From an uncultured Planctomycetia bacterium (GTDB lineage Bacteria > Omnitrophota > Gorgyraeia > JACOVV01), in the NCBI GenBank assembly GCA_964372345.1, contig CAYJQR010000001.1, positions 36,825 through 100,824 of the forward strand: a stretch of 64,000 nucleotides of DNA. The letters run 5' to 3'. A model generated the notes under the pieces. It searched no databases, was not told where the DNA came from, and worked only from the letters and a program-made list of their open reading frames with translations. A program made the translations under genes and the position numbers. Positions 21,663 through 39,774 of this stretch are shown in pieces. Position 1 is the stretch's first letter. Each line of letters starts with the position of its first letter.

Positions 21663-22529
21663 ATGAAGATCTATTTGAACGGCCAGTGGGTGGAAAAAGA
21701 AGAAGCGAAGATCTCGATCTTTGACCATGGGCTTCTGTACGGCGACGGTGTTTTCGAAGGAATCCGTTCCTACAACGGTCTCATTTTCAAATTGAGAGAG
21801 CATATAGACCGGCTCTTTGAATCGGCCCACACGATCATGCTCAAAATTCCTCTCACCAAAGAAGGACTGACCGAGGCGGTGAAGCAGACTCTTCGCGCCA
21901 ACCAGTTGAAAGAAGCATATATCCGGCTGGTGGTGACTCGCGGAGAGGGAGATTTGGGGCTGGACCCGCGCAAATGCAAAAAGGCGACGATCTTCATCAT
22001 CGCGGACAAAATTGTTCTTTACCCGAAAGAACTCTATGAAACCGGGTTGTCAATCATCACGGTTCCGACCCGGAGAAATGTCCCGGAGGCGCTCAACCCG
22101 CAGATCAAGTCGCTCAATTACTTGAATAACATTCTGGCCAAAATCGAGGCCACTAACGCCGGTAGTGAAGAAGCGATCATGCTTAACGCGCAGGGGTACG
22201 TCGCCGAGTGCACCGGGGATAATATTTTTAGCGTCGCTAAAGGAAAATTGTTGACTCCGGCTCCTTACGTCGGCGCTTTAAAGGGAATTACCCGGGATAC
22301 GGTGATCGCTCTGGCGCAAAAAGGCCGGATGATCGTTCATGAGACTGTTCTCACAAGGCATGATTTGTTCAACTCCGATGAGTTGTTCCTGACCGGCACC
22401 GCCGCTGAGATTATTCCTGTGGTCAAAGTGGACGGCAGGGTGATCGGAACAGGAAAACCGGGGCCGGTGACGCTGCGGCTGATGAAGGAATTTCGTAAAC
22501 TAACTGAGATAGATGGAGAAAAGTACTAA
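21663..22529 (+). CDS. ilvE: Branched-chain amino acid aminotransferase (class IV PLP enzyme).
   Basis: MKIYLNGQWV...FDHGLLYGDGVFEGIR with a catalytic Lys region. About 289 aa. The start was set to ATG 21663 with the SD-like gaggtggtg. Confidence 0.8.
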   Translation: MKIYLNGQWVEKEEAKISIFDHGLLYGDGVFEGIRSYNGLIFKLREHIDRLFESAHTIMLKIPLTKEGLTEAVKQTLRANQLKEAYIRLVVTRGEGDLGLDPRKCKKATIFIIADKIVLYPKELYETGLSIITVPTRRNVPEALNPQIKSLNYLNNILAKIEATNAGSEEAIMLNAQGYVAECTGDNIFSVAKGKLLTPAPYVGALKGITRDTVIALAQKGRMIVHETVLTRHDLFNSDELFLTGTAAEIIPVVKVDGRVIGTGKPGPVTLRLMKEFRKLTEIDGEKY

Positions 22530-23020
22530 TGGTCTGCGATCTCTGCAATAAAAACGTGGCGACAGTCCACTTGACAGAAATCATCAATGATCAGATGAGA
22601 GAGCTTCATCTCTGTGAGGGGTGCGCCAGAGAAAAAGGGGCCGAGATGGAACAGCATTTCGGATTGCAGGATATGCTGGCCGGGTTGGCCGATATGGGAG
22701 AGGAGTTGGGGGAAGAGACCGGAGACCAGTTAACCTGCGGCGTCTGTGGGATGACCTACCTTGATTTCCGCAAAATAGGGCGGCTTGGCTGTCCCGCCTG
22801 TTACGACGCTTTCAAAAAGAAATTGACGAGTGTCCTGCGCCGGATTCACGGTTCGACGCGGCACGTCGGGAAAATTCCGGCCAGGACTAATCAGGATGTG
22901 TCGGATAAATTAAGAATCCAGGAGTTAAAACGAAAACTTCAGCGGTCGGTCGAAATGGAGGAATTTGAAGAAGCGGCAAGGATCCGGGATGAGATTCGGA
23001 GACTGGAGAGGAAAGCTTAG
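22529..23020 (+). CDS. mcsA: McsA-like protein arginine kinase activator (zinc-finger plus UVR domain).
   Basis: Has two CxxC pairs (CDLCNK, CEGCARE, CGVCGM, CPACY) and a C-terminal UVR-like segment (EFEEAARIRDEIRRLE). It lies upstream of mcsB and clpC. Confidence 0.8.
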   Translation: MVCDLCNKNVATVHLTEIINDQMRELHLCEGCAREKGAEMEQHFGLQDMLAGLADMGEELGEETGDQLTCGVCGMTYLDFRKIGRLGCPACYDAFKKKLTSVLRRIHGSTRHVGKIPARTNQDVSDKLRIQELKRKLQRSVEMEEFEEAARIRDEIRRLERKA

Positions 23021-23021
23021 T

Positions 23022-23124
23022 GTCATTCCGACCGAAGTCCGCCAGAGGCGGACGAAGTGGAGGAATCTAATGTCGAGGTGAGATTCCTCGACTCGCCCTT
23101 CGGGCTCGCTCGGAATGACAGTTA
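23022..23124. repeat. Nested-hairpin miniature element between mcsA and mcsB.
   Basis: An 11-bp terminal inverted repeat (tgtcattccga / tcggaatgaca) encloses inner stems (gaggaatct/agattcctc; gcccttcgggc). Confidence 0.7.
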
Positions 23125-23175
23125 TGATAACCTAAGGGACAATAGATTTGAGATAACAGGGGAAGAATTTAAACG

Positions 23176-24225
23176 ATGAAAATCAACGATCTACTCAACC
23201 AAACCAGCGAATGGCTGAAAGGAACGGGGCCGAACGCGGAGATTATCCTCTCGACGCGAATCCGCTTGGCGCGCAACATCGAGAAGAAACCGTTCTCGAA
23301 TTGGGCGACGAAAGCGCAAGCCGCGGAAATTTTTGAAGAGGCGATTCTGGGATTAAACGACGTGAAAACGCTGAAGACCGGAATGGCGCTGGCGCTCAAG
23401 GACGTCCCCTCAGTGGACCGCCAGTTTCTGGTCGAGCGGCATCTGATGAGCAAAGAACAGGCGTCGCGTCCCGAGAATAAAGGATTGGCGCTCAGTAAGG
23501 ACGAGGTTTGCAGCGTCATGGTTAATGAAGAGGATCACCTGCGGGCGCAAATCCTGGGATCGGGGTTCAACCTTCGCAAGTGCTGGGAGATGGCCGATAA
23601 GCTCGACGACCAAATCAGCGAGAAGATCACTTACGCTTTTTCATTGGAGCTCGGTTATCTGACCGCGTGTCCCACCAACACGGGAACCGCCATGAGGGCT
23701 TCGGTGATGGCTCATCTCCCCGCGCTGGTCATGACAAAACGGATCGGCAAACTTTTGGAAGCGATCACCAAATTCGGCCTGACCACCCGCGGACTTTACG
23801 GCGAGGGGACGGAAGCGAGCGGCAACATTTTTCAGGTTTCCAATTCCGTGACACTGGGACAGTCTGAAGACGACACCGTTGAATATCTGGAGCGGTTTGT
23901 GAAACAGCTCATCGGGCACGAAGAGAACGCCCGGAGAACTCTCCTGACACAGCAGAGGGCGGAATTAGAGGACCGTGTCTGGAGGGCTTACGGGGTGTTA
24001 AGAGCGGCGCACATTATCACCAGCAATGAAACGATTGATCTTTTATCGACCGTTCGCTTGGGGGTTGATTTGGGGATTATCAAAGAGATCGACCGCCGGG
24101 CGGTCAATGAACTTTTCATCGCGACGCAGCCGGCTCATCTGCAAAAAATGGAAGGGAAAGAGCTGACTCCTCCCGAGCGGGACGTCAAACGGGCGGCGAT
24201 TATTCGAACGAGGTTGGGAGAGTAA
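23176..24225 (+). CDS. mcsB: Protein arginine kinase McsB (ATP:guanido phosphotransferase family).
   Basis: Has phosphagen-kinase motifs (CPTNTGTAMRASVMAHLPAL) and is about 350 aa. Confidence 0.9.
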   Translation: MKINDLLNQTSEWLKGTGPNAEIILSTRIRLARNIEKKPFSNWATKAQAAEIFEEAILGLNDVKTLKTGMALALKDVPSVDRQFLVERHLMSKEQASRPENKGLALSKDEVCSVMVNEEDHLRAQILGSGFNLRKCWEMADKLDDQISEKITYAFSLELGYLTACPTNTGTAMRASVMAHLPALVMTKRIGKLLEAITKFGLTTRGLYGEGTEASGNIFQVSNSVTLGQSEDDTVEYLERFVKQLIGHEENARRTLLTQQRAELEDRVWRAYGVLRAAHIITSNETIDLLSTVRLGVDLGIIKEIDRRAVNELFIATQPAHLQKMEGKELTPPERDVKRAAIIRTRLGE

Positions 24226-24252
24226 GAGTTATTTTAATAAAGGGAGGCAACG

Positions 24253-26700
24253 ATGTTTAATCGTTTTACGGAGCGGGCAAGGAAAGTGGTGTTGTTGGCG
24301 AAGGAAGAAGCGAAACGGTTCAATCACGACTACATCGGGACAGAACACGTTCTGCTGGGACTTATCCGGGAAGGAGAAGGGGTGGCCGCGGCGGTTCTGC
24401 AGAAACTTGGATTGAGCCCGGACAATATTCGTTTAGAGGTGGAGAAGCTGGTCCAGCCGGGTCCAGCGACGATGGTTTCCGGCGATATCCCGTTTACTCC
24501 AAAAGCTAAAAAAGTGATCGAGCTTGCCATGGATGAAGCGCGGGCGCTGGGGCATAACTATATCGGCACTGAGCACCTCCTGCTGGGGCTTATCCGCGAG
24601 GGAGAAGGGGTTGCTTCGCAGGTTCTGCTGAACATGGGGCTGGATCTCAACAAAGTCCGCAACGAGGTGATGAATCTGCTCGGTTCCGGAATGCCGGGGC
24701 CGGCCCAGCAGCAGGGAAGCGGAGGGGGAAGCGGCGCCGCGCAGGGGCAGAGGACTAAGACGCCCGCTTTGGACGCGTTCGGCCGGGATCTCACGGCGCT
24801 GGCCCGCGAAGGAAAACTCGATCCCGTCGTGAACCGAAAAGATGAAATCGAACGGGTGATTCAAATTTTAGGACGGCGCACCAAGAATAATCCTGTCCTG
24901 CTGGGGGAAGCGGGCGTCGGCAAGACGGCCATCGTCGAAGGGTTGGCTCAGTTGATTGTTCGATCGGAAATCCCAGAGATTCTCAAAGACAAGAGAGTGG
25001 TCATCCTCGATCTGGCTTTAATGGTCGCCGGCACAAAATACCGGGGACAATTTGAAGAGCGGATCAAGGCGGTGATGGATGAACTGCGGCGTTCCGAAAA
25101 CGTCATCATCTTCATTGACGAACTGCATACCCTCGTCGGGGCCGGCGCGGCTGAAGGGGCCATTGACGCGTCGAACATCTTGAAACCGGCGCTGGCGCGG
25201 GGCGAAATTCAATGTATCGGCGCCACGACGCTGGATGAATACCGCAAGTATATTGAAAAAGACGCCGCCTTGGAACGGCGGTTTCAGACAATCATGGTGG
25301 AGCCGCCGTCGGTGGAAGAAACCGTCGAAATCCTAAAAGGGCTTCGGGATAAATATGAAGCGCATCATAAAGTAAAATTTACCGACGCCTCTTTGGAGGC
25401 GGCCGCCAAACTCTCTGACCGGTATATCAGCGGACGGTTCCTTCCGGACAAAGCGATTGACCTCATTGACGAGGCCGGATCACGGGCCCGCCTCTCGATG
25501 ATGACCGCGCCGGAAAGCTTGAAGGAATTAGAATCAAAACTGGAAACGATTCGCAAGGAAAAGGAGTCGGCCGTCAAGGGGCAGGATTTTGAGAAAGCGG
25601 CGAAGTTTCGCGATCAGGAGCGCGAGGCGAAAGAGGCGATGGACAAAGGGCGCAAAGACTGGTCTTTGGCGAAGCAAGCGACGGAACCGGAGATCTCCGT
25701 TGAGGAGATCGCTTACGTTGTCTCCAAGTGGACCGGTATCCCTCTGGCGCGTCTTGAAGAGAAAGAGACGGAACGTTTGCTCCGGATGGAAGAAGTGATT
25801 CACAAGAGAGTCGTCGGCCAGGAAGAAGCCATTCAGGCGATCGCGCGGTCCGTCCGCCGGTCTCGCTCCGGCATAAAAGACCCCAAACGCCCGATTGGTT
25901 CTTTTATCTTTTTGGGTCCGACCGGCGTCGGCAAGACGCTGTTAGCCAAGGCGCTCGCCGAATTTATCTTCGGCAGCGAAGACGCCATGATTCAAGTGGA
26001 TATGTCGGAGTACATGGAAAAATTTAACGTCTCCCGCCTGGTCGGCGCCCCTCCGGGGTATGTCGGTTATGAAGAGGGGGGGCAGTTGACCGAGAGAATC
26101 CGGAGAAAACCCTACTCGGTGGTTCTGCTGGATGAGATCGAGAAAGCGCATCCGGACGTGTTCAATATCTTGCTGCAGGTTCTTGAGGAGGGACGGCTGA
26201 CCGATAATTTGGGAAGAAAGGTCGATTTTAGAAACGCGATCTTGATCATGACTTCAAACGTGGGCGCTGAGTTATTAAAGAAGCACGGTTCTCTTGGTTT
26301 CACGCCGCAGAGCAAGGAATACAATTATGAGCAGATGAAGAAACAGTTAATGGACGAAGTCCGGAAAACTTTCAAGCCGGAATTCCTGAACCGTCTCGAT
26401 GACATTATCGTCTTCCGGGCGTTGACCAAAGACGACCTTTACAAAATCCTGGAGATCGAGCTTTCTTATTTCAGCAATCGCCTGAAAGACCAGGAGATCA
26501 AAGTCGATCTGACCCAGAAAGCGAAGGATTTTCTCATTGAAAAAGGATTCGACGAGATCTACGGCGCCAGGCCGATCAAAAGGACGTTGCAGAGATATTT
26601 GGAAGACCGTGTTTCCGAGGAGATCATCAGCGGGAAGATCGCCAAAGGGGCGGCGATTAAAGTGAGCGTCAAAGACGACTCGTTAATTTTTGAGGTGTGA
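24253..26700 (+). CDS. clpC: ATP-dependent Clp protease ATP-binding subunit ClpC.
   Basis: Has N-terminal double Clp-N repeats, two AAA+ modules (GEAGVGKTAIVEGLA; GPTGVGKTLLAKALA) and a UVR linker. 815 aa. Confidence 0.95.
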   Translation: MFNRFTERARKVVLLAKEEAKRFNHDYIGTEHVLLGLIREGEGVAAAVLQKLGLSPDNIRLEVEKLVQPGPATMVSGDIPFTPKAKKVIELAMDEARALGHNYIGTEHLLLGLIREGEGVASQVLLNMGLDLNKVRNEVMNLLGSGMPGPAQQQGSGGGSGAAQGQRTKTPALDAFGRDLTALAREGKLDPVVNRKDEIERVIQILGRRTKNNPVLLGEAGVGKTAIVEGLAQLIVRSEIPEILKDKRVVILDLALMVAGTKYRGQFEERIKAVMDELRRSENVIIFIDELHTLVGAGAAEGAIDASNILKPALARGEIQCIGATTLDEYRKYIEKDAALERRFQTIMVEPPSVEETVEILKGLRDKYEAHHKVKFTDASLEAAAKLSDRYISGRFLPDKAIDLIDEAGSRARLSMMTAPESLKELESKLETIRKEKESAVKGQDFEKAAKFRDQEREAKEAMDKGRKDWSLAKQATEPEISVEEIAYVVSKWTGIPLARLEEKETERLLRMEEVIHKRVVGQEEAIQAIARSVRRSRSGIKDPKRPIGSFIFLGPTGVGKTLLAKALAEFIFGSEDAMIQVDMSEYMEKFNVSRLVGAPPGYVGYEEGGQLTERIRRKPYSVVLLDEIEKAHPDVFNILLQVLEEGRLTDNLGRKVDFRNAILIMTSNVGAELLKKHGSLGFTPQSKEYNYEQMKKQLMDEVRKTFKPEFLNRLDDIIVFRALTKDDLYKILEIELSYFSNRLKDQEIKVDLTQKAKDFLIEKGFDEIYGARPIKRTLQRYLEDRVSEEIISGKIAKGAAIKVSVKDDSLIFEV

Positions 26701-27795
26701 ATGGGAGGAATTCGGAGAATCCGAAAGCGGATCGGGGTGGCGGGTTTTTGCCTGGCAGGATTTTTTGCCGTCAGCCACGGAGGGTTTTTAGTTTCTGTGC
26801 CCCGGCCTGTCGTGGAGAACTTAAAACCCGAATCCGTTTCGGAAACCATGCAGGGGGGATTTGATCTGGTGGATGGAGAGATGGTTCTTCATCTTGGGGG
26901 AATTGTTTTCAAAATGGGTTTGAAACCCCCCTATGCGGGACGACTCAGCATTGACCACGTCCCATTCATGGGATGGATGATCGTGGCCTCTGTGTCGTTT
27001 CAGGGAGAAAGAAGCCCCTTTAAAGGGACGTTTCAGTCAACTCAGATACTAGTGAATTACGCCCCGGCGATGTTATTTCACGGGCGGTATGAGATCGTTG
27101 ACGGGAAACTTTTGCTGTCGGATTGCGAGGTTGGAGATCTCTATCAATTGGACGGCAGTGTCGGCTTAAGCGTCCCCTATCCAGTCGCCTTGACCCTTCG
27201 GCTGAAAACATGCCAGGCCGGCGAGGTCTTCTTTGTCTCTGAACTGGCGCGGTCAGGAGCGCTGGCCGGAACCGCGAAGGGAGAGTGGCGGCTGGAGGGC
27301 CCGCTTTCGGCCTTGCGGTTCTCCGGAACGTTTGAATTAACGGATGGCCGGCTGGGAAAGAATAACCCGATTTTCTTTTCATCCTCTTTCTTCCCGGTGG
27401 CGGGGACATTGCCCGTTCTAACGATGACGGACGCGCGCGTGAATGGCGATCAAGGGGTTCTGTTGGCAAAAGGAGAGATCGACCTGCGCCAGGGCAATCC
27501 GATGGAAAAGATTAAATTCTATTCGGACACGAAAACGATGCGTTGGAAGGGATGGGATATTCAAACGGCCGATGAGGAAACTAGAGAAGGAGAGGTGAAG
27601 GTCGGCAAGAATATCAGCAAGGATATGCGCGTCAGCTTCAAGGGGTTCATGAATGACGAGCTTGAAATGCAGAGGGCGGGAAGCGGCAAGAAAGAGTTCG
27701 AGTTGGAGTACCGCTTCCAGAAAAATAAAAGGATCAAAATGCAGGTAAAGGGGCACGAAGAGTTCCTGGGGATGGAAAATCGGGTGAAATTCTAA
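26701..27795 (+). CDS. Membrane-anchored hypothetical protein. Possibly an AsmA/TamB-like fragment.
   Basis: Has an N-terminal signal anchor and a beta-rich periplasmic region. It directly precedes mlaEFD. No diagnostic motif was recognised. Confidence 0.4.
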   Translation: MGGIRRIRKRIGVAGFCLAGFFAVSHGGFLVSVPRPVVENLKPESVSETMQGGFDLVDGEMVLHLGGIVFKMGLKPPYAGRLSIDHVPFMGWMIVASVSFQGERSPFKGTFQSTQILVNYAPAMLFHGRYEIVDGKLLLSDCEVGDLYQLDGSVGLSVPYPVALTLRLKTCQAGEVFFVSELARSGALAGTAKGEWRLEGPLSALRFSGTFELTDGRLGKNNPIFFSSSFFPVAGTLPVLTMTDARVNGDQGVLLAKGEIDLRQGNPMEKIKFYSDTKTMRWKGWDIQTADEETREGEVKVGKNISKDMRVSFKGFMNDELEMQRAGSGKKEFELEYRFQKNKRIKMQVKGHEEFLGMENRVKF

Positions 27796-27796
27796 A

Positions 27797-28582
27797 ATGA
27801 ACTTCGCGCTTTGGTTTGCCAGGCTGGGGGAGAGATTTCTGGATTTGGCGGTCTACGTGGGGGGCGTAGCCATCCTTTTCGTTCGGACGATTCATTTTGC
27901 CGTCGTGGGGCCCCTCGATCGCTTTCAAGTGTTTGACCAGATGAAGAAGATCGGCATCAACAGCCTTCCCATTGTTACGTTAATCTCTCTTTTTACCGGC
28001 GTGGTGCTGGCGCTTCAGAGCGCTTATCAAATGCAGAAAATCTCCGCCCAGCTTTACATCGCCAGCCTTGTCTCTCTCTCAATGATGCGGGAGTTGGGCC
28101 CCGTTTTGACGGCCCTCATCGTCGCCGGAAGAGTGGGGGCGGCGATCACGGCGGAGTTGGGGACCATGAAGGTGACCGAACAGATTGACGCTTTAGAAAC
28201 GCTGTCGACCCATCCGGTTCGCTATCTGTCCGTTCCCCGTTTTTTAGCCCTGATGACGATGCTTCCCATTTTGACTGTCTACGCCGATCTGATAGGAGTG
28301 ATCGGGGGATACCTGGTCGGGGTCTATAAGCTGGGAATCGGCTCGGGGATTTACATCAAAATGACTTTTGAACCGCTCATGTTGAAAGATCTTTTCACCG
28401 GGCTCTCCAAATCGATCGTTTTTGGCATGGTCATCTGCATCGTCGCCTGTTATGAGGGATTTCGGACGCAGGGAGGGGCTGAAGGAGTTGGAAGGGCGAC
28501 GACTTTCTCGGTAGTGACGTCTTTTATTCTAATCATAGCGTCGGATTGCTTGTTCACGGCGCTGTTTTACTTTGCGTTTTGA
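27797..28582 (+). CDS. mlaE: Phospholipid ABC transporter permease MlaE.
   Basis: A 261 aa polytopic MlaE/YrbE-family protein (TMKVTEQIDALETL). Confidence 0.85.
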   Translation: MNFALWFARLGERFLDLAVYVGGVAILFVRTIHFAVVGPLDRFQVFDQMKKIGINSLPIVTLISLFTGVVLALQSAYQMQKISAQLYIASLVSLSMMRELGPVLTALIVAGRVGAAITAELGTMKVTEQIDALETLSTHPVRYLSVPRFLALMTMLPILTVYADLIGVIGGYLVGVYKLGIGSGIYIKMTFEPLMLKDLFTGLSKSIVFGMVICIVACYEGFRTQGGAEGVGRATTFSVVTSFILIIASDCLFTALFYFAF

Positions 28583-29346
28583 TGATTGAAATTATCAATC
28601 TTTGTAAATCATTCGGCCCGCGGCGGGTTTTTCACAACCTGAACCTGACGATTGAAACGGGAGAGACGCGGGTCATTATCGGCCGGTCCGGCGCCGGCAA
28701 GAGTGTTTTGCTGAAACATATCGTTGGATTGATTCGTCCTGATTCGGGACAGGTGCTCATTGACGGAGTGGATGTCTGCTCCATTAGAGAGAGCGCGGCA
28801 TTGGACAAAATCCGCATGAAGTTCGGAATGTTGTTTCAAGGAGCGGCTCTTTTTGATTCTCTCTCTATCTGGGAAAACGTCGGGTTCGCCCTCATCCAGC
28901 ACACCTCGATGGGGGAGGAAGAAATCCGCCACAGGGTGAGGGAGTGTTTGTCGCTGGTGGGCTTGAAAGGGATCGAGGAGATGAAGCCGGCGGAATTGAG
29001 CGGCGGAATGCGCAAACGAGTGGGGTTGGCGCGGGCCATCTGCATGAACCCGGAGACTCTTTTTTACGACGAGCCGACGACGGGAATTGATCCGATCATG
29101 GCGGACGCGATCACCGATTTGATTATTGATCTGCATGACAAACTGCGGGTCACTTCCATCGTGGTGACCCATGACATGATCAGCGCGTACAAAGTAGCGA
29201 GCAGGATCGCCATGTTGTATGCCGGCAAGATTATCGAGGTAGGAACGCCGGATCAGATTCGGAACACAAAAAACCCGATCGTGCGGCAATTTATCACGGG
29301 CGCCGCTGTGGGGCCGATTACGGAAGCAGAGGGGTTGGCGATATGA
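28582..29346 (+). CDS. mlaF: Phospholipid ABC transporter ATPase MlaF.
   Basis: Has Walker A (GRSGAGKSVL), the signature LSGGMRKRVGLARA and Walker B (FYDEPTTGIDP). The start was set to ATG 28582, overlapping the mlaE stop (TGATG). Confidence 0.85.
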   Translation: MIEIINLCKSFGPRRVFHNLNLTIETGETRVIIGRSGAGKSVLLKHIVGLIRPDSGQVLIDGVDVCSIRESAALDKIRMKFGMLFQGAALFDSLSIWENVGFALIQHTSMGEEEIRHRVRECLSLVGLKGIEEMKPAELSGGMRKRVGLARAICMNPETLFYDEPTTGIDPIMADAITDLIIDLHDKLRVTSIVVTHDMISAYKVASRIAMLYAGKIIEVGTPDQIRNTKNPIVRQFITGAAVGPITEAEGLAI

Positions 29347-29377
29347 CGCAAAAATTGGGAAGGGAGGAGAAGACTAG

Positions 29378-30094
29378 GTGATTCAACGAGAGAACGTCGA
29401 GGTCAAAGTGGGGATCTTTGTTTTTATCGGGATGCTGATTCTTTTTGTCATCGTGTTTTCAATCGGTGATTTCTATCTCTGGAATCCCGGATATTCCGTC
29501 AGGGCCGGTTTTAGGTTTATCAACGGAATCGAAGAATCCGCTCCGGTCCGTTTCGCCGGCGTCAATGCCGGCGAAGTAAAGGATATCCAGATCGTCACTG
29601 ATCCGCAGACAGGACAGACATGGGTCGAACTTGTTCTCTGGCTGAGGCAGAATGTCATGGTGAGCGAAGATTCGGTCGTGACGATCAATACGCTCGGTTT
29701 ATTAGGAGAAAAATATGTGGAAATTGCTCCCGGCACTCCCAGTGCGAAGCTTTTAAAAGAGGGGGACAGGGTCCGCGGCAAGGATCCTTTAGCGACTGAA
29801 GCCATCGCGGAGAAGGCTTACGCGGTGGCGACGAAGCTGGATCAAGTCATGACTCATGTGAATGAAGTTGTCCAGGATGCTGAATTTAAGAGTTCTTTAA
29901 AGCGGACAGTCGTCAATACAGCGGAAGCAGCCGACTCAGCCAAGTCGGTCCTGTCTCAAATCCAAAGCGGCCAGGGGACCCTCGGGAAACTCATTTATGA
30001 GGAGGCGGTTCACAAGAATCTGGAGGATCTCACCGGCGATTTAAAGGCGAATCCCTGGAAACTGCTCCAGAAGCCGAAGGAAAAAAAGAAATAG
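29378..30094 (+). CDS. mlaD: MCE-domain protein MlaD.
   Basis: Has an N-terminal transmembrane helix and an MCE domain (GAPVRFAGVNAGEV). Confidence 0.8.
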   Translation: MIQRENVEVKVGIFVFIGMLILFVIVFSIGDFYLWNPGYSVRAGFRFINGIEESAPVRFAGVNAGEVKDIQIVTDPQTGQTWVELVLWLRQNVMVSEDSVVTINTLGLLGEKYVEIAPGTPSAKLLKEGDRVRGKDPLATEAIAEKAYAVATKLDQVMTHVNEVVQDAEFKSSLKRTVVNTAEAADSAKSVLSQIQSGQGTLGKLIYEEAVHKNLEDLTGDLKANPWKLLQKPKEKKK

Positions 30095-30105: not shown

Positions 30106-31143
30106 ATGACATTTATTTTCATTCGTTTATTTTTTGTCGCGATGAGCGGAGTCGTCGGATACCAGCTGGGATTTTCCGTTTCTAATCTAGACGCGCAAAC
30201 CGCGTGGACATGGGCGGCGCTGGGATTGGGCAGCGGCGGAATCGTCGTGGCGTTGGAATTGCTGTTGCGCCCCATTTATGTCCGCGGCCTTTCAGCGGCG
30301 GTCTTTGGACTGCTATTCGGATTGATCCTGTCGAAGTTAATCACCAGCGCGTTTTTGCTCGTCCCGATGTCGCCGATGTTAGGGCAATCCGTGCAATTAG
30401 CGTTCACTCTTGTGTTCTGTTATCTGGGAATGATCATGGCCCTTCGGAGCAAGGACGAATTCAGCGTCATCATTCCCTATATCAAGTTTGAACAAGAGGG
30501 AAAAATCGAAGATCTTGTGTTGCTGGACACCAGCGTCATCATTGACGGCAGGATCGCCGATATCACGAAGACACGGTTCATTGACGGCAAGTTCGTTATT
30601 CCGCGGTTTGTGCTGAAGGAACTCCAGCAGATCGCCGATTCTCAGGATTCCCTGAAGCGAAACAGGGGTCGCCGGGGGCTAGACGTTCTTAATAAAATTC
30701 AAAAGAGCGCTAATATCAATGTCGTGATCCATGAAGAGGATTTTCCGGAGATTCACGAAGTGGACGCGAAACTAGTGAAGCTGGCGAAAAAGATTCAGGC
30801 GAAAGTTTTCACTAATGATTACAACCTGAACAAAGTCGCCGAACTGCAGGGAGTGACTGTCTTGAACATCAACGAATTGGCGAACGCCCTCAAACCGGTC
30901 GTCCTGCCGGGTGAAGTCATGGAAGTGCGGCTGGTCAAGGAGGGGAAGGAATATAATCAAGCGGTCGCCTATCTGGACGACGGGACCATGGTGGTCGTGG
31001 AAGGATCCAGGCGTCTCATTGGACAGCGCATCGAAGCGGAGGTCACCAGTGTCATTCAGACGGCCGCCGGCCGGATGATTTTCGCCAAGCTGACTTCTCA
31101 ACAACAGCAGATGGCTGAAAGAAATCAGTCAAAATCGGAATGA
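30106..31143 (+). CDS. YacL-like membrane protein with PIN and TRAM domains.
   Basis: Has an N-terminal transmembrane region and a PIN domain (LLDTSVIIDGRI...TND). The C-terminal TRAM domain is GEVMEVRLVKEGKEYNQAVAYLDDGTMVVVEGS. Confidence 0.75.
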   Translation: MTFIFIRLFFVAMSGVVGYQLGFSVSNLDAQTAWTWAALGLGSGGIVVALELLLRPIYVRGLSAAVFGLLFGLILSKLITSAFLLVPMSPMLGQSVQLAFTLVFCYLGMIMALRSKDEFSVIIPYIKFEQEGKIEDLVLLDTSVIIDGRIADITKTRFIDGKFVIPRFVLKELQQIADSQDSLKRNRGRRGLDVLNKIQKSANINVVIHEEDFPEIHEVDAKLVKLAKKIQAKVFTNDYNLNKVAELQGVTVLNINELANALKPVVLPGEVMEVRLVKEGKEYNQAVAYLDDGTMVVVEGSRRLIGQRIEAEVTSVIQTAAGRMIFAKLTSQQQQMAERNQSKSE

Positions 31144-31248: not shown

Positions 31249-31272
31249 ATGATGCTACGGGGAGGATTCATT

Positions 31273-32001: not shown

Positions 32002-32490
32002 ATGTCCATCCGTATTGGCATTGGGTATGATATTCATCGTCTCAAAAAAGGCAAGGGTGTTCGTTTGGGCGGAGTGCTTATCCCCTGCGATCAGGAATTA
32101 ATCGGGCATTCCGACGCCGACGTCTTGATCCACGCCGTCTGCGACGCTCTTTTGGGGGCGGTCGGCGCGGGAGATATGGGAACGCATTTCCCCGATACAG
32201 AGGAGAAATTCGGAGGAAAAGAGAGCTCTTGGTTTTTGAAAGAGGTGGTTAAGAAGGTTCAAAAGAAGGGGTTTAAAATATCGCAGATTGATTCGGTCGT
32301 CATCGCGGAGAAGCCAAAACTTTCGGAGTGCCGTTCCCGGATACAAAAAAGAGTGGCCAGTTTGTTGAGAATTTCTATCGGGCAGGTGAGCGTTAAAGCG
32401 AAAACCAACGAGGGGCTCGATTCCATCGGCGGCAAGAAAGCGATCGCGGCGTGGGCTGTCTCGCTGGTAGAGAAAGTGAAAACAAAATGA
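32002..32490 (+). CDS. ispF: 2-C-methyl-D-erythritol 2,4-cyclodiphosphate synthase.
   Basis: [11 protein letters not shown]...[11 protein letters not shown] has the IspF Zn-binding D-H-H motifs. 162 aa. Confidence 0.9.
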
Positions 32491-33203
32491 CTCTATTGGC
32501 GATTCTTCTTTTCATCGGTTGTTTAGCGGCTTTGGCGCATTATTTCAGACCGGAGATTGACGCCTGCTTTGAACGGGACCCGGCGGCGGCCAATACGATA
32601 GAAGTCCTCTTAAGCTATTCCGGTCTCCACGCCTTGATAGGGCACCGCCTGGCTCATTGTCTGTATCAATGGAAAATTCCCATTCTGCCGCGGCTCATTT
32701 CCCAGTGGACCCGGTTTTTCACCGGGATAGAGATCCATCCCGGCGCCGTCATCGGGGAAGGGTGCTTTATTGATCATGGAATGGGAGTTGTCATTGGCGA
32801 AACGGCCGTCCTCGGCAAGAATGTCACCTTGTATCAGGGAGTCACGCTGGGAGGGACCGGGAAGGAAAAAGGGAAACGCCACCCGACGCTGGGGGACAAT
32901 GTTCTGGTCGGGGCCGGAGCAAAGGTGTTAGGCAGCATTCGTATCGGCAATAACGGGGTGGTCGGCGCCAACGCGGTGGTGATTCGGGATATCCCCGCTA
33001 ACTCGACCGTCGTCGGGGTTCCGGGAAGAGTCACCCAGCGCCATGGGAGACGATTCCCGGGAATCAATCTGGACCACACCACGCTTCCGGACCCTCTTGC
33101 CCAGTCTTTGGAACAGCTCCAGCACCATATTGATCATCTCGAGGAAGAACTGGAAAGATGGCGTCAGAAGGCAGGGGAGGGGAAGGAATTAGAGGAAGAG
33201 TAA
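32487..33203 (+). CDS. cysE: Serine O-acetyltransferase.
   Basis: Has a left-handed beta-helix of hexapeptide repeats with the CysE signature [21 protein letters not shown]. The start was set to ATG 32487 (ATGA overlap with the ispF stop). Confidence 0.75.
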
Positions 33204-34784: not shown

Positions 34785-34796
34785 CCTTTACGTTGC

Positions 34797-34999: not shown

Positions 35000-35028
35000 T
35001 TGACTTACTATTTGTGATATGGTATACT
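35000..35028 (+). promoter_or_regulatory. Near-consensus sigma70 promoter for vapBC.
   Basis: TTGACT (35000-35005), a 17-nt spacer and TATACT (35023-35028). An RBS gaggagga follows, with the ATG at 35055. Confidence 0.65.
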
Positions 35029-35054
35029 TTTCATATAAGAGAGGAGGATGTAAG

Positions 35055-35285
35055 ATGGACACTTCAGTGGTTACATCCAAAGGGCAAATTGTGATCCCAA
35101 GTAGGATCCGAGAGTATTTTCATATCCAACAGGGGACGATGGTTTGTTTTGAGCCTCGAGGCAGTGAGATCGTGTTGAAACCTCTCACTCCAGGATATTT
35201 TGACAAAATGGCAGGTATTCTTGGGACGAGCGGCAAAGTACTCAAGAGATTTCTGGATGAGAAGAAAAAGGAAAGAAGGCAATGA
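35055..35285 (+). CDS. vapB: VapB/MazE-type antitoxin (AbrB/SpoVT swapped-hairpin fold).
   Basis: MDTSVVTSKGQIVIPSRIRE is a typical AbrB/MazE N-terminus. The 4-nt overlap with the PIN gene is the usual TA arrangement. Confidence 0.75.
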   Translation: MDTSVVTSKGQIVIPSRIREYFHIQQGTMVCFEPRGSEIVLKPLTPGYFDKMAGILGTSGKVLKRFLDEKKKERRQ

Positions 35286-35689
35286 GTGGTTTGGTTCTGG
35301 ATGCCTATAGTGTTATTGCATATCTGGAGCGAGAATTCGCATATGAGAAGGTAAAGGTTCATTTAGAACAAGCAGTACAGAGTGGCCAGTATTTATTTTT
35401 ATGTACCGTAAACTGGGGAGAGGTTTATTACAGTGTCATGAAGGAAACAAATCACGCTAAGGCTGAAGAGGCTAGGCATGTTATTGCCACATTACCGATT
35501 GAATTAGTGCCGGCTGATCTGGGGTTGACTCATCAAGCGGCTCTGTATAAAGCAATCCACAAAATGTCCTACGCCGACTGTTTCGCTGCTGCTCTTGCCA
35601 AGATACGGAAAGCTACCCTCCTTACGGGTGACCGAGATTTTAAACAGCTCGATGGAGAAATCAAGGTAGAGTGGTTGCCAGAAAAATAA
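35282..35689 (+). CDS. vapC: PIN-domain VapC toxin.
   Basis: LVLDAYSVIAYL...; 135 aa with conserved acidic residues (D6, E, D, D). Translationally coupled to vapB. Confidence 0.75.
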   Translation: MSGLVLDAYSVIAYLEREFAYEKVKVHLEQAVQSGQYLFLCTVNWGEVYYSVMKETNHAKAEEARHVIATLPIELVPADLGLTHQAALYKAIHKMSYADCFAAALAKIRKATLLTGDRDFKQLDGEIKVEWLPEK

Positions 35690-35706
35690 TGTCTACTCAC
35701 TAAAAT

Positions 35707-36261
35707 TTAAGGTCGGTGTTGTAGACATCGGCTTGAAAGAGAATAGTTTTCTTGTATTTCTAGTGTAAGCGTCTGTGTTACATCTTCTTTTGACAGATAT
35801 CTTCCCTCTGACCAACCGACAACTTCCCCTATGACATTAAAATTTACTTTAAAGACTGTTATGGAAAGATGATCCGAGTGGGACGTGATACTAACCATTT
35901 CTCCTTCTTTAGGTTGGCCAGTGCCCCAGGAAGGTGAGTTGGGTGTGGTTCTTATTTGAGTGATATTTCCATTTATTTCATTAAGATCCGTAGGTGGACT
36001 ATTGATCAATTCTGGAGGTAAATTCATGCGATTCTCATTATTCACAACTTCATAGGCATTGGTAAAAATTGTTCGCGATGTAGTTACCCGAGTCCCCGAT
36101 TTATCGATGATCGTTTGTGTTTCTTGTATACCATCCCAATCGACCGTTACTACTTTATCTCCTGATGTGAGAGGCTTTAGACTATTTTTTAAAGGAGAGT
36201 ACCTTTTGAGAAAATTATCCCGATCCTGCTCATTTCGTAGGTCCGAAACATCAATGTTCAC
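35707..36261 (-). CDS. Hypothetical protein encoded in an AT-rich (foreign-looking) segment.
   Basis: A 184 aa ORF with no recognisable motifs. It is convergent with vapC and uses a GTG start. Confidence 0.35.
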   Translation of the reverse strand: MNIDVSDLRNEQDRDNFLKRYSPLKNSLKPLTSGDKVVTVDWDGIQETQTIIDKSGTRVTTSRTIFTNAYEVVNNENRMNLPPELINSPPTDLNEINGNITQIRTTPNSPSWGTGQPKEGEMVSITSHSDHLSITVFKVNFNVIGEVVGWSEGRYLSKEDVTQTLTLEIQENYSLSSRCLQHRP

Positions 36262-36452
36262 TTGAACGTGGGGTTCTTTCGCGGATGGCTTTGTTGTTTT
36301 ATTTGTAGGATTCGAGGTGAAATATTTTTAATTCTTTAATTTACAGAGTATTATGGTAAAAACTGCAAGCAACGAAACCCTTCATTGCACCCTCCTTTGG
36401 TTATGAGGGGGAGGAAGTGATACAATATGTGGAAAGGATGTGGAGGCGAGAG

Positions 36453-37082
36453 TTGATGTCCAAAGGTAAATTCATCACGTTCGAGGGCTCGGAAGGATGC
36501 GGGAAGTCTACGCAGATCAAACTGCTCTCTGAGGCGTTAATCAAGCAGGGGCGGGCCGTTTTGACGACCCGTGAGCCGGGCGGCACCGACGTCGGGGAGG
36601 AGATTCGTAAAATCCTGATGAATCCCGAACATGTCGAGCTGACCGACTTGACCGAAGTCTTTCTCTATGAGGCCGCGCGCGCCCAGCTCGTCAACGAAGT
36701 CATCATCCCGGCGCTCGATTCAGGACACATCATTCTCTGCGACCGGTTCAGCGAGTCCACCCTCGCTTATCAAGGATACGGCGGGAAAATCAGCGTGGAA
36801 TGGATCCAGAAAATAGACCAGATGGCCCGCGGGGGATTAAGTCCCGATCTAACCCTGTTCATTGACGTGGATCCCGAGGTAGGGTTGAAGCGGGCAAGAG
36901 CGAGCGAGAAAGAAATTGACCGCCTTGAGGAGAAGGATTTGGAGTATCACAAAAGAGTCTATCAGGGGTATTTGGAGTTAGCGAAAAAGAGTCCGGATCG
37001 AATCAAGATAGTGGATGGCAGGAAGGGCGTTCAAGAAGTGCATCAGGAAATATTGAAACTATGTCTTTCTCCAACATACTAG
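36453..37082 (+). CDS. tmk: Thymidylate kinase.
   Basis: FITFEGSEGCGKST P-loop, a DRF motif and an LID region. The start was set to ATG 36453. Confidence 0.9.
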   Translation: MMSKGKFITFEGSEGCGKSTQIKLLSEALIKQGRAVLTTREPGGTDVGEEIRKILMNPEHVELTDLTEVFLYEAARAQLVNEVIIPALDSGHIILCDRFSESTLAYQGYGGKISVEWIQKIDQMARGGLSPDLTLFIDVDPEVGLKRARASEKEIDRLEEKDLEYHKRVYQGYLELAKKSPDRIKIVDGRKGVQEVHQEILKLCLSPTY

Positions 37083-38059
37083 GCCAACAAACGGCGGTTT
37101 GGCTTTTTAAGAGAGCTCTCCGGGAGGAAAAGCTAGCCCACGCTTATCTTTTGACCGGGCCCGACGGCGTCGGTAAGAGAACTCTCGCTCAAGAGGCTGC
37201 GAAGGGACTGAACTGCCGGCTGGTTCATACCCAACTCGAGACTCGAGACTCGAGACTCGAGACTGAAGAAAATTGGCCCTGCGATTCCTGTCGCGAGTGC
37301 CGGCTGATCGAATCGGGACAGTACGCGGACGTCACTTTATTGACTCCTGAAAATAAAACTCTTAAGATCGAAGCCATTCGCCGCCTCCAACAGGCGGTGG
37401 CGCTGAAACCGTACGAAAGCCGTTTCCGTGTCGCGATTATTCAGGATGTGGACCAATTAACCCCCGACGCCGCCAACGCTTTCCTAAAAACGCTGGAAGA
37501 ACCGCCGCAGGGCGTTTTCTTTTTTCTAACGACCCAATACCGGGAGAGAGTTTTCGCGACGATTCAATCCCGTTGCCAGGTTGTCTCTCTGAAAGCCATT
37601 TCTAAAGAGATATTGGAGCGGAAGATGATCCCTCGTTCGGTGATTTCCTTGGCCCAGGGAAGTTTCGGCAGGGCAGACTATTGGATGGATCCCGAAGTGG
37701 GAGAGAGAAGAAAAAAAATCTTATCGGCGTTTTTCTTAAACCATTCTCTCGACGATATCAACGAAAAGGTATCCAGCAAAGAGGAGGAACGCCTGCTGAT
37801 GGAGGAAAAACTCCTTCTTCTGCAGAGCGGGCTTCGGGATTTAATCGTCTGGAAGAAAACAAAAGACGAGGCATTGCTCATTCATCGGGATTACCGGGAG
37901 CAAATCAGTCATTTTGCCTCCCGATTTGAGATGGACACTCTAGAAGATAAAATTATTTCTTTGGAACAGTTGACTCAAGGATTAGACCGCAGCGCTAACC
38001 TAAAACTAACCCGGGCGGTTCTGGAACTTGAGCTGGCGGACCTGACAAAGGCAGAATGA
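37061..38059 (+). CDS. holB: DNA polymerase III delta-prime subunit, with an in-frame heptamer tract.
   Basis: HAYLLTGPDGVGKRTLA, a Zn module (CDSCRECRL) and an SRC motif. 332 aa. It follows tmk as in Bacillus. Confidence 0.85.
   Translation: MSFSNILGQQTAVWLFKRALREEKLAHAYLLTGPDGVGKRTLAQEAAKGLNCRLVHTQLETRDSRLETEENWPCDSCRECRLIESGQYADVTLLTPENKTLKIEAIRRLQQAVALKPYESRFRVAIIQDVDQLTPDAANAFLKTLEEPPQGVFFFLTTQYRERVFATIQSRCQVVSLKAISKEILERKMIPRSVISLAQGSFGRADYWMDPEVGERRKKILSAFFLNHSLDDINEKVSSKEEERLLMEEKLLLLQSGLRDLIVWKKTKDEALLIHRDYREQISHFASRFEMDTLEDKIISLEQLTQGLDRSANLKLTRAVLELELADLTKAE
37235..37266. repeat. (CTCGAGA)4 heptanucleotide tandem repeat inside holB.
   Basis: Sequence is ctcgagactcgagactcgagactcgagactga. 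It encodes LETRDSRLETE in frame. Confidence 0.9.
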
Positions 38060-39774
38060 ATCGATACTACGTTACCACTCCTCTTTATTACGTCAACGAC
38101 AAACCCCATATCGGCCACGCCTATACCGAGATTGCGGCGGACACAATCGCTCGTTACCGTCGGTTCAGAGGGGATGAAGTTTTCTTTTTGACCGGGACCG
38201 ATGAGCATGGACAAAAAATCGAGCAGGCGGCTAAAAAAGCGGGGATGCCGGCGAAGGATTTCGCGGATCAGGTGGCTCCGCGTTTTTCGGAAGTATGGAA
38301 ACTTCTGGGGATCAGCTACGATTATTTTTTAAGGACGACGGAGCCAAGACATATTCAAACAGTGCAGAAGGTATTATCGCTCCTTTTTGAAAAAGGAGAT
38401 ATCTACATTTCTGAATACGAAGGATGGTATTGTACTCCCTGCGAGACGTTCTGGACGGAGACGCAGCTTGAAGAACAGAAAATGGAAAATGGAAAATGCC
38501 CACCGGAGGCGGGTTCGCCTCTGGCGAAGAAAATGGAAACGCCTGTTTGCATTGACTGCAAAAGACCGATTGAAAAAATCACGGAGAGTAATTACTTCTT
38601 TCGGTTATCGAAATATCAAGAGTGGCTGATGGACTACATCAATAGCCACCCTAAGTTTATCCAACCGGCAACGCGGCGGGAAGAAATCTTGAGTTTTTTG
38701 AAACAGCCGTTGAATGATCTCTGCATCTCACGTCCCAAACAGAGACTTGCATGGGGAATTCCGATTCCGTTCAGTCAAGATCATGTCACGTATGTGTGGT
38801 TTGACGCATTGATTAATTATATTAGTGGAATCGATTATCTTGAATGGGCTAAGAGCTGGGAGCTAGGAGCTAGGAGTGAAAACTCGGATTCTACCTCGCC
38901 AGCTTCCAGCTTCCAACTTCTAGCTTCTAGCCGTTTTTCAAAATTCTGGCCGGCCGATATGCACTTAATCGGCAAAGACATCCTTCGCCCTCACGCCGTC
39001 TACTGGCCCATCATGCTGCGCGCTCTCGGAATAGAACCCCCTAAACAGGTTTTTGCTCACGGCTGGTGGACGATGCAAGAGGAAAAAATGTCGAAATCCA
39101 AAGGAAATATCGTTGATCCGGTGGACGTCTGCGCCCGCTATGGCGTGGACGTTTTTCGTTATTTCCTTCTAAGAGAGGTGACCTTTGGGCTGGATGGCGC
39201 TTACTCGGAGGGGGCGTTGACTTTGAGGTTTAACAGTGATTTAGCCAACGATCTTGGTAATTTGTTTCATCGAACCCTGACGATGGTGGAGAAATACTAT
39301 GGGGGGAAAGTACCCCAGGTAGAACAGAAGGACGAGGGACGAAGGACGAGGGACGAAAGGAAATATATCCCAGAAGACTTAATCGTTCTTCTTCGATCTC
39401 TTCCGGATCGTTTGGATCAAGCGATGGAGGATCTTGATTTCGCGCGCGCTCTTTCCGCCATCTGGGAGTGCGTCAACCGGGCCAATAAATTGATTGAAGA
39501 AGTGAAACCGTGGGTTTTAGACAGGGAAAACGACCGGGAAGGGTTAAATCAAGTCATCTATTTTTTGGTGGATCTATTACGGATCATTACTCTGGCGGTG
39601 GCCCCCTTCATGCCGCGCGCGGCGGAAAAGATGTGGAAACAATTGAACCTTCCCTCGAAGTTAGAAGCGATGGGTTTTGAGGATTTGGCTCCTGGAAAAA
39701 CCGTCGGCGGTTTCCATGTGAACAAGGAAGAACCGCTCTTTCCCCGATTAGACACTAAGAAAGGAGACCGTTAA
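38056..39774 (+). CDS. metG: Methionine--tRNA ligase, carrying three in-frame repeat insertions.
   Basis: Has HIGH (PHIGHAY), KMSKS and Zn-knuckle cysteines (CTPCE...CIDCKRP). The product is 572 aa. Confidence 0.9.
   Translation: MNRYYVTTPLYYVNDKPHIGHAYTEIAADTIARYRRFRGDEVFFLTGTDEHGQKIEQAAKKAGMPAKDFADQVAPRFSEVWKLLGISYDYFLRTTEPRHIQTVQKVLSLLFEKGDIYISEYEGWYCTPCETFWTETQLEEQKMENGKCPPEAGSPLAKKMETPVCIDCKRPIEKITESNYFFRLSKYQEWLMDYINSHPKFIQPATRREEILSFLKQPLNDLCISRPKQRLAWGIPIPFSQDHVTYVWFDALINYISGIDYLEWAKSWELGARSENSDSTSPASSFQLLASSRFSKFWPADMHLIGKDILRPHAVYWPIMLRALGIEPPKQVFAHGWWTMQEEKMSKSKGNIVDPVDVCARYGVDVFRYFLLREVTFGLDGAYSEGALTLRFNSDLANDLGNLFHRTLTMVEKYYGGKVPQVEQKDEGRRTRDERKYIPEDLIVLLRSLPDRLDQAMEDLDFARALSAIWECVNRANKLIEEVKPWVLDRENDREGLNQVIYFLVDLLRIITLAVAPFMPRAAEKMWKQLNLPSKLEAMGFEDLAPGKTVGGFHVNKEEPLFPRLDTKKGDR
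38472..38540. repeat. Composite miniature element in metG: AGAACAG, (AAAATGG)3, hairpin cccaccggaggcggg, hairpin ttcgcctctggcgaa, then GAAAATGGAAAC.
   Basis: It encodes ENGKCPPEAGSPLAKKME, inserted between the two CxxC pairs of the MetRS zinc knuckle. It is a sister of the lnt copy at 16269-16357. Confidence 0.8.
38848..38932. repeat. SWELGA-type palindromic element, copy B2, inserted in frame in metG.
   Basis: Sequence is gctaagagctgggagctaggagctaggag ... ccagcttccagcttccaacttctagcttctagcc. It encodes AKSWELGARSENSDSTSPASSFQLLASS. Confidence 0.8.
39321..39360. repeat. (GAAGGAC/GAGGGAC) heptamer tandem repeat with an AGAACAGAA left terminus, inside metG.
   Basis: Sequence is agaacagaaggacgagggacgaaggacgagggacgaaagg. 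It encodes KDEGRRTRDERK in frame. Confidence 0.85.

Follow-up and report, generated by a model that had tools for sequence, protein, structure and literature searches.

The 64,000-nucleotide stretch of DNA analyzed here (contig CAYJQR010000001.1 of assembly GCA_964372345.1, referred to below as the window) carries an mcsA-mcsB-clpC operon within a long block of housekeeping and envelope genes whose order recalls that of Bacillus subtilis. Judged from its sequence, the window belongs to a genome of Candidatus Omnitrophota, within the Planctomycetes-Verrucomicrobia-Chlamydiae (PVC) superphylum, with a predicted double-membrane envelope. The block is conserved across this phylum and its likeness to the B. 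subtilis order most probably arises because both lineages retain an old gene neighbourhood and not through kinship with Firmicutes, a reading to which we assign a probability of about 0.75. The old neighbourhood would have run lysS ... mcsA-mcsB-clpC-(radA)-yacL-ispD-ispF-cysE-cysS, together with tmk, holB, metG and tatD, the outer-membrane modules lolCD and mlaEFD standing inside the block in diderm lineages and ctsR, disA and gltX being found there instead in Bacillota. The organism is not a Firmicute, nor is it a new lineage that would link Firmicutes with diderms.

Nearly all genes in the window lie on the + strand, as mapped from open reading frames (ORFs) and NCBIfam and Pfam scans. The conserved co-directional block opens with lysS, encoding lysine-tRNA ligase (18387..19760, +; NF001756, 623 bits, cutoff 468), followed by the lolC/E permease and lolD ATPase genes for lipoprotein release to the outer membrane (19762..21649, +), the permease matching TIGR02212 at 364.9 bits against a cutoff of 362 and the ATPase having LolD models as its top-scoring matches, yet under their cutoffs. 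The branched-chain aminotransferase gene ilvE (21624..22529, +; NF006185, 471.7 bits, above cutoff) has a stop codon that overlaps the start of mcsA (22529..23020, +), beyond which lie mcsB (23176..24225, +), clpC (24253..26700, +) and orfX (26701..27795, +), the last encoding a membrane-anchored beta-rich protein. The genes mlaE, mlaF and mlaD (27797..30094, +) encode a minimal MlaEFD phospholipid transporter (MlaE TIGR00056, 256 bits, above cutoff; MlaF among the top ATPase models; MlaD domain PF02470) and precede a yacL-like gene (30106..31143, +) for a protein with Pfam PIN and TRAM domains and 47-57% identity to YacL of Alicyclobacillus and Paenibacillus. The block continues on the same strand with ispD (31249-31995; TIGR00453), ispF (32002-32490; TIGR00151), cysE (32451-33203; TIGR01172) and cysS (33204-34784; TIGR00435), all above cutoff. 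From lysS to cysS it comprises 17 genes in 16.4 kb on one strand and is tightly packed, with neighbouring genes overlapping or mostly 0-32 nt apart and the largest gaps being 156 nt (mcsA-mcsB) and 106 nt (yacL-ispD). Further downstream tmk (36417-37082, +; TIGR00041, above cutoff), holB (37061-38059, +; TIGR00678, 177.8, just below the cutoff of 180.6) and metG (38056-39774, +; NF008900, above cutoff) have reading frames that overlap or abut.

The first-pass annotation of this DNA had described a Bacillus-like order, and the NCBIfam and Pfam matches bear out mcsA-mcsB-clpC, yacL-ispD-ispF-cysE-cysS and tmk-holB-metG. It was less accurate in placing metG next to tatD, between which a 12.9-kb defence island intervenes, in passing over a vapBC-type toxin-antitoxin pair and a reverse ORF that interrupt cysS-tmk, and in leaving lysS outside the interval although it belongs to the conserved block.

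All the sequence features tested place the mcsA-mcsB-clpC module in the McsAB-ClpC family. McsA, the activator of the protein arginine kinase, matches NF053706 over its full length (5e-52, 176 bits, the cutoff of 210 being tuned to Bacillus), and its translation holds two CxxC...CxxC zinc-finger pairs and a C-terminal UVR motif (PF02151), the gene lying directly upstream of mcsB. McsB, the protein arginine kinase, passes NF002194 (433.3 bits, cutoff 385) but does not reach the cutoff of 500 of the Bacillus-tuned NF053707 (419.7), and contains the phosphagen-kinase domain ATP-gua_Ptrans (PF00217, 1e-65); the McsB_C domain (PF27454) was found on P0001, a protein identical to the McsB of the window. 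Residues 9-347 of McsB align with the solved McsB structures 8wtb, 6tv6 and 6fh1 (4e-95), C-terminal domain included, and in an alignment of 31 McsB sequences NEEDH and CPTN, the motifs that also served as patterns in the scan for McsB loci, do not vary and the ERD..RA..IR segment is conserved. ClpC is an AAA+ unfoldase collinear with B. subtilis ClpC over residues 1-812 (1110 bits), with two Clp_N repeats, a short UVR-type middle domain and two AAA modules. It retains both GTEH motifs, the Glu32 and Glu106 of which we take, from work in B. subtilis, to be phospho-arginine sites, and an LGF loop that aligns with the VGF ClpP-docking loop of B. subtilis ClpC. The identification of this 815-aa ATPase as ClpB was rejected, the ClpB and ClpA models scoring below their cutoffs. 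By homology, McsA would activate the McsB kinase to phosphorylate arginines of damaged proteins, and the ClpC N-domain would read the phospho-arginine mark so that the tagged protein is unfolded, presumably for ClpP.

Compared to the class III heat-shock operon of B. subtilis and other Bacillota, the module has the same gene order and orientation, with full-length McsB and ClpC homologues in which the catalytic, phospho-arginine-binding and ClpP-loop motifs are kept. The likeness extends downstream to yacL-ispD-ispF-cysE-cysS, with some Omnitrophota keeping radA before yacL. The window differs in lacking ctsR, a CtsR operator, disA and gltX, in having lolCD and ilvE upstream and orfX and mlaEFD between clpC and yacL, and in its host being a diderm of the PVC group. 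The absence of ctsR, radA, disA and gltX had been remarked on earlier and is upheld, in that tblastn with Paenibacillus proteins gave no match in the window for the first three and no window ORF was annotated as gltX. A search of the window for the CtsR operator (the tandem heptad RGTCAAA) gave 0 matches with up to 2 mismatches allowed. The module is therefore not part of a CtsR regulon, and with repressor and operator both missing its regulation must differ from that in Bacillus. In the absence of the CtsR repressor, expression would probably occur by read-through of a long transcript starting near lysS, a lead suggested by the overlapping ilvE and mcsA frames and by the position of the top sigma70-like promoter match (18338-18367), shortly before lysS. 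Across the window neither promoter matches (20 compared with 13.2 +/- 3.4) nor terminator matches (27 compared with 23.0 +/- 5.0) exceeded the shuffled expectation.

The placement of the genome in Omnitrophota is consistent across several comparisons. A search with McsB returned one 88%-identical protein followed by hundreds at 57-63% identity (the best of these at 58-61%), and all matches bearing an organism name were Candidatus Omnitrophica/Omnitrophota. Likewise the named top matches of SecA, a marker that the first-pass annotation had put forward as a check, were all Omnitrophota at 61-64% identity. Several phylogenomic marker sets place Omnitrophota in the PVC superphylum (PMC10066038), and the pilus cluster described below matches Verrucomicrobia-type families (Verru_Chthon cassette, Amuc_1100/1101). 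The closest homologues and long-range synteny both tie the window to Omnitrophota genomes, and neither of the housekeeping markers SecA and McsB is closest to Bacillota, the diderm classes of that phylum included. In keeping with a diderm envelope, lnt, lolCDE-type genes, mlaEFD and an lptF/G-type gene occur within the window; the earlier list of envelope genes (lnt, lolCDE-like, mlaEFD, lptF/G and a type II secretion system (T2SS)-like cluster) holds in full. The window has no BamA or lpx genes, though no search aimed at these was made.

The organism had been proposed to be a diderm specifically related to Firmicutes, comparable to Negativicutes or Halanaerobiales, such that the gene order would be a Firmicutes synapomorphy. 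The window is indeed collinear with the Bacillota order ctsR-mcsA-mcsB-clpC-radA-disA-yacL-ispD-ispF, which was verified in Paenibacillus, but the named SecA and McsB matches fall to Omnitrophota, the McsB proteins of Bacillota form a separate clade in every bootstrap replicate (100/100), and the window encodes a Lol system and Verrucomicrobia-type pilus families. Furthermore, ctsR and disA were seen only in Bacillota loci, and in Negativicutes mlaEFD sits in a large outer-membrane cluster by tolC and tamB and not between clpC and yacL (PMC10665443). A Firmicutes affinity is thus barely credible, the organism falling in a recognised diderm group in which the synteny is widespread and beyond which it is partly found.

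The spread of the gene order was followed in a one-genome-per-species scan that returned at least 600 McsB loci, the best 80 of which were analyzed and belong to Omnitrophota, Planctomycetota, Verrucomicrobiota, Eisenbacteria, Binatia and Bacillota. Neighbours were counted only in loci with enough flanking sequence. Within Omnitrophota the arrangement is the rule, lysS being found upstream in 16/17 loci, lolD in 17/18, ilvE immediately before mcsA in 17/18, clpC in 16/16, mlaE in 14/15, yacL in 11/12 and ispD in 10/11, with per-gene counts ranging from 10/11 to 20/20. The 17-gene order is identical in Omnitrophota metagenome-assembled genomes (MAGs) whose McsB is merely 45-60% identical. In GCA_001803975.1 and GCA_964642015.1 (McsB ~58%) it reads prfB-secA-lnt-lysS-lolCE-lolD-ilvE-mcsA-mcsB-clpC-X-mlaE-mlaF-mlaD-PIN-ispD-ispF-cysE-cysS, and prfB-secA-lnt-lysS is likewise conserved at loci L004, L006 and L017. 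In a close groundwater relative (L168) the order runs on into tmk-holB-metG, and tmk-holB-metG recurs in this order at L108, L146, L149 and L154.

Outside Omnitrophota the order is partial. The Verrucomicrobiota clade keeps lolD-ilvE-mcsAB-clpC-(gap)-mlaEFD (ilvE 20/20, clpC 15/17, lolD 10/20, mlaE 3/13, lysS 2/16, yacL and ispD 0/8 each). Eisenbacteria and Binatia keep lysS-lolCE-lolD-mcsAB-clpC (lysS 3/3, lolD 4/4, clpC 4/4), with ilvE at 0/4 and mlaE, yacL and ispD each at 0/3. The position of lolC/E-lolD is hence shared by Omnitrophota, Eisenbacteria/Binatia and many Verrucomicrobiota. Bacillota loci have clpC in 10/10, yacL in 5/8 and ispD in 4/7, with a clpC-yacL gap of 2.1-5.1 kb and no lysS (0/6), lolD (0/8), ilvE (0/10) or mlaE (0/8) detected beside mcsB. 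In Planctomycetota the counts fall to clpC 4/21 and mlaE 1/15, with lysS 0/20, lolD and ilvE 0/22 each and yacL and ispD 0/13 each; of the four loci with clpC, three come from anammox genera, where the order is mcsAB-clpC-radA.

With Paenibacillus RadA as query, radA was located immediately before yacL in eight Omnitrophota loci (L007, L008, L010-L013, L027 and L043), for the most part within the mlaD-yacL gap. In Kuenenia and Jettenia (L019, L020) it is the gene next after clpC, matching the clpC-radA adjacency of Bacillota. At L052, from Paenibacillus gansuensis, the order is ctsR-mcsA-mcsB-clpC-radA-disA-(CDP-alcohol phosphatidyltransferase)-yacL-ispD-ispF. All 10 tblastn matches to ctsR fall in loci assigned to the Bacillota clade (L033 included) and none in diderm loci, with disA likewise confined to loci assigned to Bacillota. 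The backbone shared across lineages is thus lysS ... mcsA-mcsB-clpC-radA-yacL-ispD-ispF-cysE-cysS, into which individual lineages have insertions of their own. So many collinear genes on one strand cannot arise randomly, and chance was rejected as the source of the synteny.

Parts of the neighbourhood extend further still. In a metagenome scan for MetG, which used a generic MetRS motif as its pattern, recovered mostly distant relatives (at most 51% identity) and is informative only for metG-tatD adjacency and for L108, metG adjoins tatD in at least 50 of 80 diverse loci. Escherichia coli K-12 shares the adjacencies tmk-holB-ycfH (TatD family) and ispD-ispF, but has no McsAB or ClpC-type unfoldase at the locus and no metG between holB and the TatD-family gene. 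These adjacencies and the widespread metG-tatD pairing indicate that the sub-blocks are not Firmicutes-specific. In Mycobacterium tuberculosis the corresponding genes run lysS-lsr2-clpC1 ... radA-disA ... ispD-ispF-cysS. In a library clustered at 50% identity 1747 McsB-like clusters were found at E<1e-30, the named cluster neighbours including Omnitrophota, Planctomycetota, Dependentiae, Opitutales and Bacillota. The literature library searched contained no paper on McsB in Omnitrophota, Planctomycetes or Verrucomicrobia; public MAG annotations already label these proteins 'protein arginine kinase'.

Several variants were seen among the compared loci and proteins. At L002/L003 (15332-17493; Omnitrophica GWA2_41_15, GCA_001803975.1) ruvC-ruvA-ruvB lie between mlaE and mlaF, inside the Mla operon, a second case after radA of DNA-repair genes within the block. 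Loci L031, L044, L057 and L059 (Isosphaeraceae, Singulisphaera, Gemmataceae) have two tandem mcsA-like matches before mcsB, and clpC is not adjacent. Five McsB-like proteins of 443-544 aa (P0145, P0178, P0205, P0221 and P0226) have an N-terminal extension of 100-200 aa and may be McsA-McsB fusions, and P0151, of 2589 aa, contains three phosphagen-kinase-like stretches.

The inheritance of the operon was addressed with a midpoint-rooted neighbor-joining tree of McsB from the named loci (100 bootstraps), which groups the sequences by phylum and places the McsB of the window inside the Omnitrophota clade. Bacillota, Verrucomicrobiota and Eisenbacteria/Binatia are each recovered in 100/100 replicates and Planctomycetota in 85/100. 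The McsA, McsB and ClpC of the window are 44%, 45% and 61% identical to those of Bacillota, compared to 42%, 45% and 60% for Verrucomicrobiota and 47%, 46% and 61% for Eisenbacteria, and on the comparisons made a recent transfer from Bacillota can be ruled out. Very old vertical descent and an ancient block transfer would both fit these data. Accordingly, the earlier suggestion of a deep lineage retaining this order gains from the finding that the backbone is kept in several distant phyla, which fits ancient inheritance, and is weakened in that an ancient block transfer would fit as well.

Such a transfer would have carried mcsA-mcsB-clpC, possibly with radA-yacL-ispDF, between an early member of the Bacillota and an ancestor of the PVC group and other Gracilicutes, with vertical descent inside each phylum afterwards. 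McsB is patchy among diderm phyla and to our knowledge absent from E. coli-type genomes; in the midpoint-rooted tree the McsB of Eisenbacteria/Binatia lies near that of Bacillota; and the Planctomycetota loci, with mcsAB mostly lacking clpC, imply that the unit can move or break. Chlamydia trachomatis, a PVC diderm, encodes ClpC, McsA and McsB, and its ClpCP2P1 breaks down casein only when this is arginine-phosphorylated (PMC10128030). In this organism clpC lies apart from mcsAB, which has tRNA genes on its flanks, a setting from which the authors suggest horizontal acquisition of mcsAB (PMC10128030); most Planctomycetota loci resemble it in having mcsAB without clpC, whereas mcsA, mcsB and clpC adjoin one another in the window and in the majority of Omnitrophota and Verrucomicrobiota loci. 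Against a transfer, each phylum has an McsB clade of its own with no diderm sequence nested in Bacillota, identities to Bacillota are no higher than to other diderm phyla, and the backbone includes lysS, cysS and ispDF, single-copy housekeeping genes that are essential and not likely to travel as passengers. On balance we regard an ancient block transfer as unlikely.

A further explanation is that similar orders were assembled independently in several phyla because co-expression is advantageous. The very tight packing suggests co-transcription, and some pairs such as ispD-ispF and tmk-holB have a functional or stoichiometric link. However, lysS, radA, cysS, the PIN-TRAM protein gene and the genes for arginine-kinase quality control and isoprenoid synthesis have no function in common that would select one order and orientation time and again, and the same order of these unrelated genes recurs in at least five phyla, making convergence highly improbable.

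Several points weigh against retention of an old neighbourhood by an Omnitrophota genome. The placement of the genome draws on best matches, a single-gene neighbor-joining tree and synteny, the window containing no rRNA, tRNA or ribosomal protein genes. In the McsB tree Omnitrophota monophyly is recovered in 54/100 replicates and the PVC clade in 50/100, and oddly labelled MAGs ('uncultured Planctomycetia', 'Bifidobacteriaceae') were assigned to groups after the tree was seen, so that the bootstrap figures are flattered. The 80 loci analyzed are the most query-like and not a random bacterial sample, and because neighbours were sought by tblastn with the proteins of the window, homologues that have diverged far escape detection. 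Ancient transfer would likewise fit the patchy occurrence of McsB among Gracilicutes, and the window showed neither clpP nor a gene for a phospho-arginine phosphatase, both of which may lie elsewhere in the genome. As to the labels, those of L006, L007, L010, L012, L014 and L017 ('uncultured Planctomycetia/Planctomycetales' and others) and of L039, L049 and L070 conflict with McsB phylogeny and synteny; 'Bifidobacteriaceae/Bifidobacterium' is among the conflicting labels and one 'Omnitrophota' groups with Verrucomicrobiota. These are probably mislabelled bins.

The product of orfX, which stands between clpC and mlaE, is a fast-evolving protein of 364 aa with an N-terminal hydrophobic helix, for which only 7 homologues were found. 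In Omnitrophota such a protein is always encoded in this clpC-mlaE position, as at loci L002-L004, L017, L024, L029 and L168. Its Pfam match to the TamB C-terminal domain is marginal (22.7 bits against a cutoff of 22.4), the AlphaFold2 model has an all-beta core at residues 53-235 and a mean predicted local distance difference test (pLDDT) score of 50.7, and Foldseek gave no match in the PDB at E<=0.001. A TamB-like identity is at best a weak lead. The position of orfX beside mlaEFD recalls the mlaEFD-tolC-tamB linkage of Veillonella, although the structure model is poor and the fold search was empty. In Veillonella parvula a minimal, TamB-linked MlaEFD has been described (PMC10665443), and the window resembles it in having an operon of mlaEFD only, with no mlaA, mlaB or mlaC nearby, and a neighbour with a marginal TamB C-terminal signature. 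In contrast to Veillonella, the MlaD of the window is short (238 aa) and without a beta-barrel extension, as reported for the PVC group (PMC10665443), and orfX encodes just 364 aa with a TamB likeness that structure search did not confirm.

The mcsA-mcsB gap contains a strongly structured element of ~100 nt (23021..23125, +), closed by a 10-bp stem (GTCATTCCGA/TCGGAATGAC) and containing a three-way junction, for which an RNA minimum free energy of -57.2 kcal/mol (z -6.6) was calculated. No Rfam family was matched in the whole window at gathering thresholds, nor in the gap at E<=1. The element is single-copy in the window and was not found in the other compared loci, indicating that it is specific to the lineage of the window; in the close relative L168 mcsA and mcsB overlap, leaving no gap. 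A lineage-specific RNA is one possibility for it, a small mobile palindromic insertion another.

The window genome has lost radA from the block and gained this structured intergenic element, two toxin-antitoxin pairs and the defence island. The interval 35019..36261, an insertion specific to the lineage, separates cysS from tmk and comprises genes for a MazE-like antitoxin (35019-35285, +; Pfam MazE_antitoxin) and a VapC-type PIN toxin (35282-35689, +; Pfam PIN), followed by an ORF of unknown function on the - strand (35707-36261) between the toxin pair and tmk; in the relatives L013, L108 and L168 cysS runs directly into tmk. The second pair, BrnT/BrnA (16975-17542), lies with a DnaQ-like exonuclease gene between lnt and lysS. 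Both pairs, BrnT/BrnA and MazE-like/VapC PIN (35019-35689), thus stand at block junctions (lnt|lysS and cysS|tmk), and relatives keep lnt-lysS and cysS-tmk adjacent without toxin-antitoxin pairs.

The 12.9-kb defence island (39817..52702, +) lies between metG and the GIY-YIG gene and tatD, in the order DUF4143 ATPase, which directly follows metG, DUF2130, hsdR, abiEi/abiEii, hsdM, hsdS and a TIR-domain protein. The hsdR is of EcoAI type, with AbiEi/AbiEii embedded between hsdR and hsdM, and the TIR protein, 1099 aa long, carries its TIR domain at the N terminus and has a weak Dsr1-like match. The guanine-plus-cytosine fraction is 0.40-0.46 in the island, compared to 0.51-0.53 in the block at 20-32 kb and 0.47-0.48 at 32-40 kb just upstream. 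At L108 yacL-ispD-ispF-cysE-cysS-tmk-holB-metG is followed directly by CPBP-thiL-tsaE-tsaB, without an island. Beyond the island a small GIY-YIG protein gene (52757-53089, +; PF01541) has a stop codon overlapping the start of tatD (53086-53865, +), which encodes a YchF/TatD-family nuclease (TIGR00010, 287 bits, cutoff 206). A small GIY-YIG gene, yazA, also lies in the holB-metS interval of B. subtilis, so that the GIY-YIG gene of the window may be part of the old neighbourhood and not of the island.

The remaining genes flank this region. Upstream, over 33..16935 (+), a pilus or T2SS-like cluster (33-11570, +) encodes gspF/pilC, three pseudopilins with weak NCBIfam and Pfam matches to the Verru_Chthon cassette and GspI/J/K, and Amuc_1101/Amuc_1100-family proteins. 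The Amuc_1101-family (PilM-like) and Amuc_1100-family proteins, families familiar from Akkermansia, are encoded at 7020-11570, and the cluster ends in a gene for a TPR protein of 528 aa whose secretin N-terminal (STN) signal is faint; the window yielded no clear secretin. The cluster is followed in sequence by prfB, secA and lnt (15352-16935, +; NCBIfam/Pfam). Downstream of tatD lie genes for a CPBP protease, mtnA, thiL, tsaE, tsaB, alr, a nucleotidyltransferase, metK, ahcY and a UbiA-type transferase, and the window closes with an lptG-like lipopolysaccharide export permease gene (63268..63993, -; TIGR04408, 2e-30), which scores below cutoff because the window end truncates it.

Taken together, the McsAB-ClpC system is not specific to Gram-positive bacteria, the intact operon being the rule in Omnitrophota, common in Verrucomicrobiota and present also in anammox Planctomycetota, Eisenbacteria and Binatia. 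The comparison of synteny across phyla, which had been proposed as a check, finds the order to be phylum-wide in Omnitrophota and partial in other diderm phyla, and this wide distribution argues against chlamydial mcsAB as an isolated horizontal oddity. Since outer-membrane modules occupy the slots of other genes in Bacillota, the locus should be usable for gene-order work on the diderm-to-monoderm transition. It is a tentative and rather doubtful proposition that the backbone is older than the divergence of Terrabacteria (Bacillota) from Gracilicutes (PVC, Eisenbacteria, Binatia), that lolCD and mlaEFD already stood inside it in a diderm ancestor, and that the monoderm Bacillota order is what remained once these modules were excised. 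If true, the locus would be a genomic scar of outer-membrane loss, and phospho-arginine tagging for ClpC would be ancestral in bacteria and not a Gram-positive invention.

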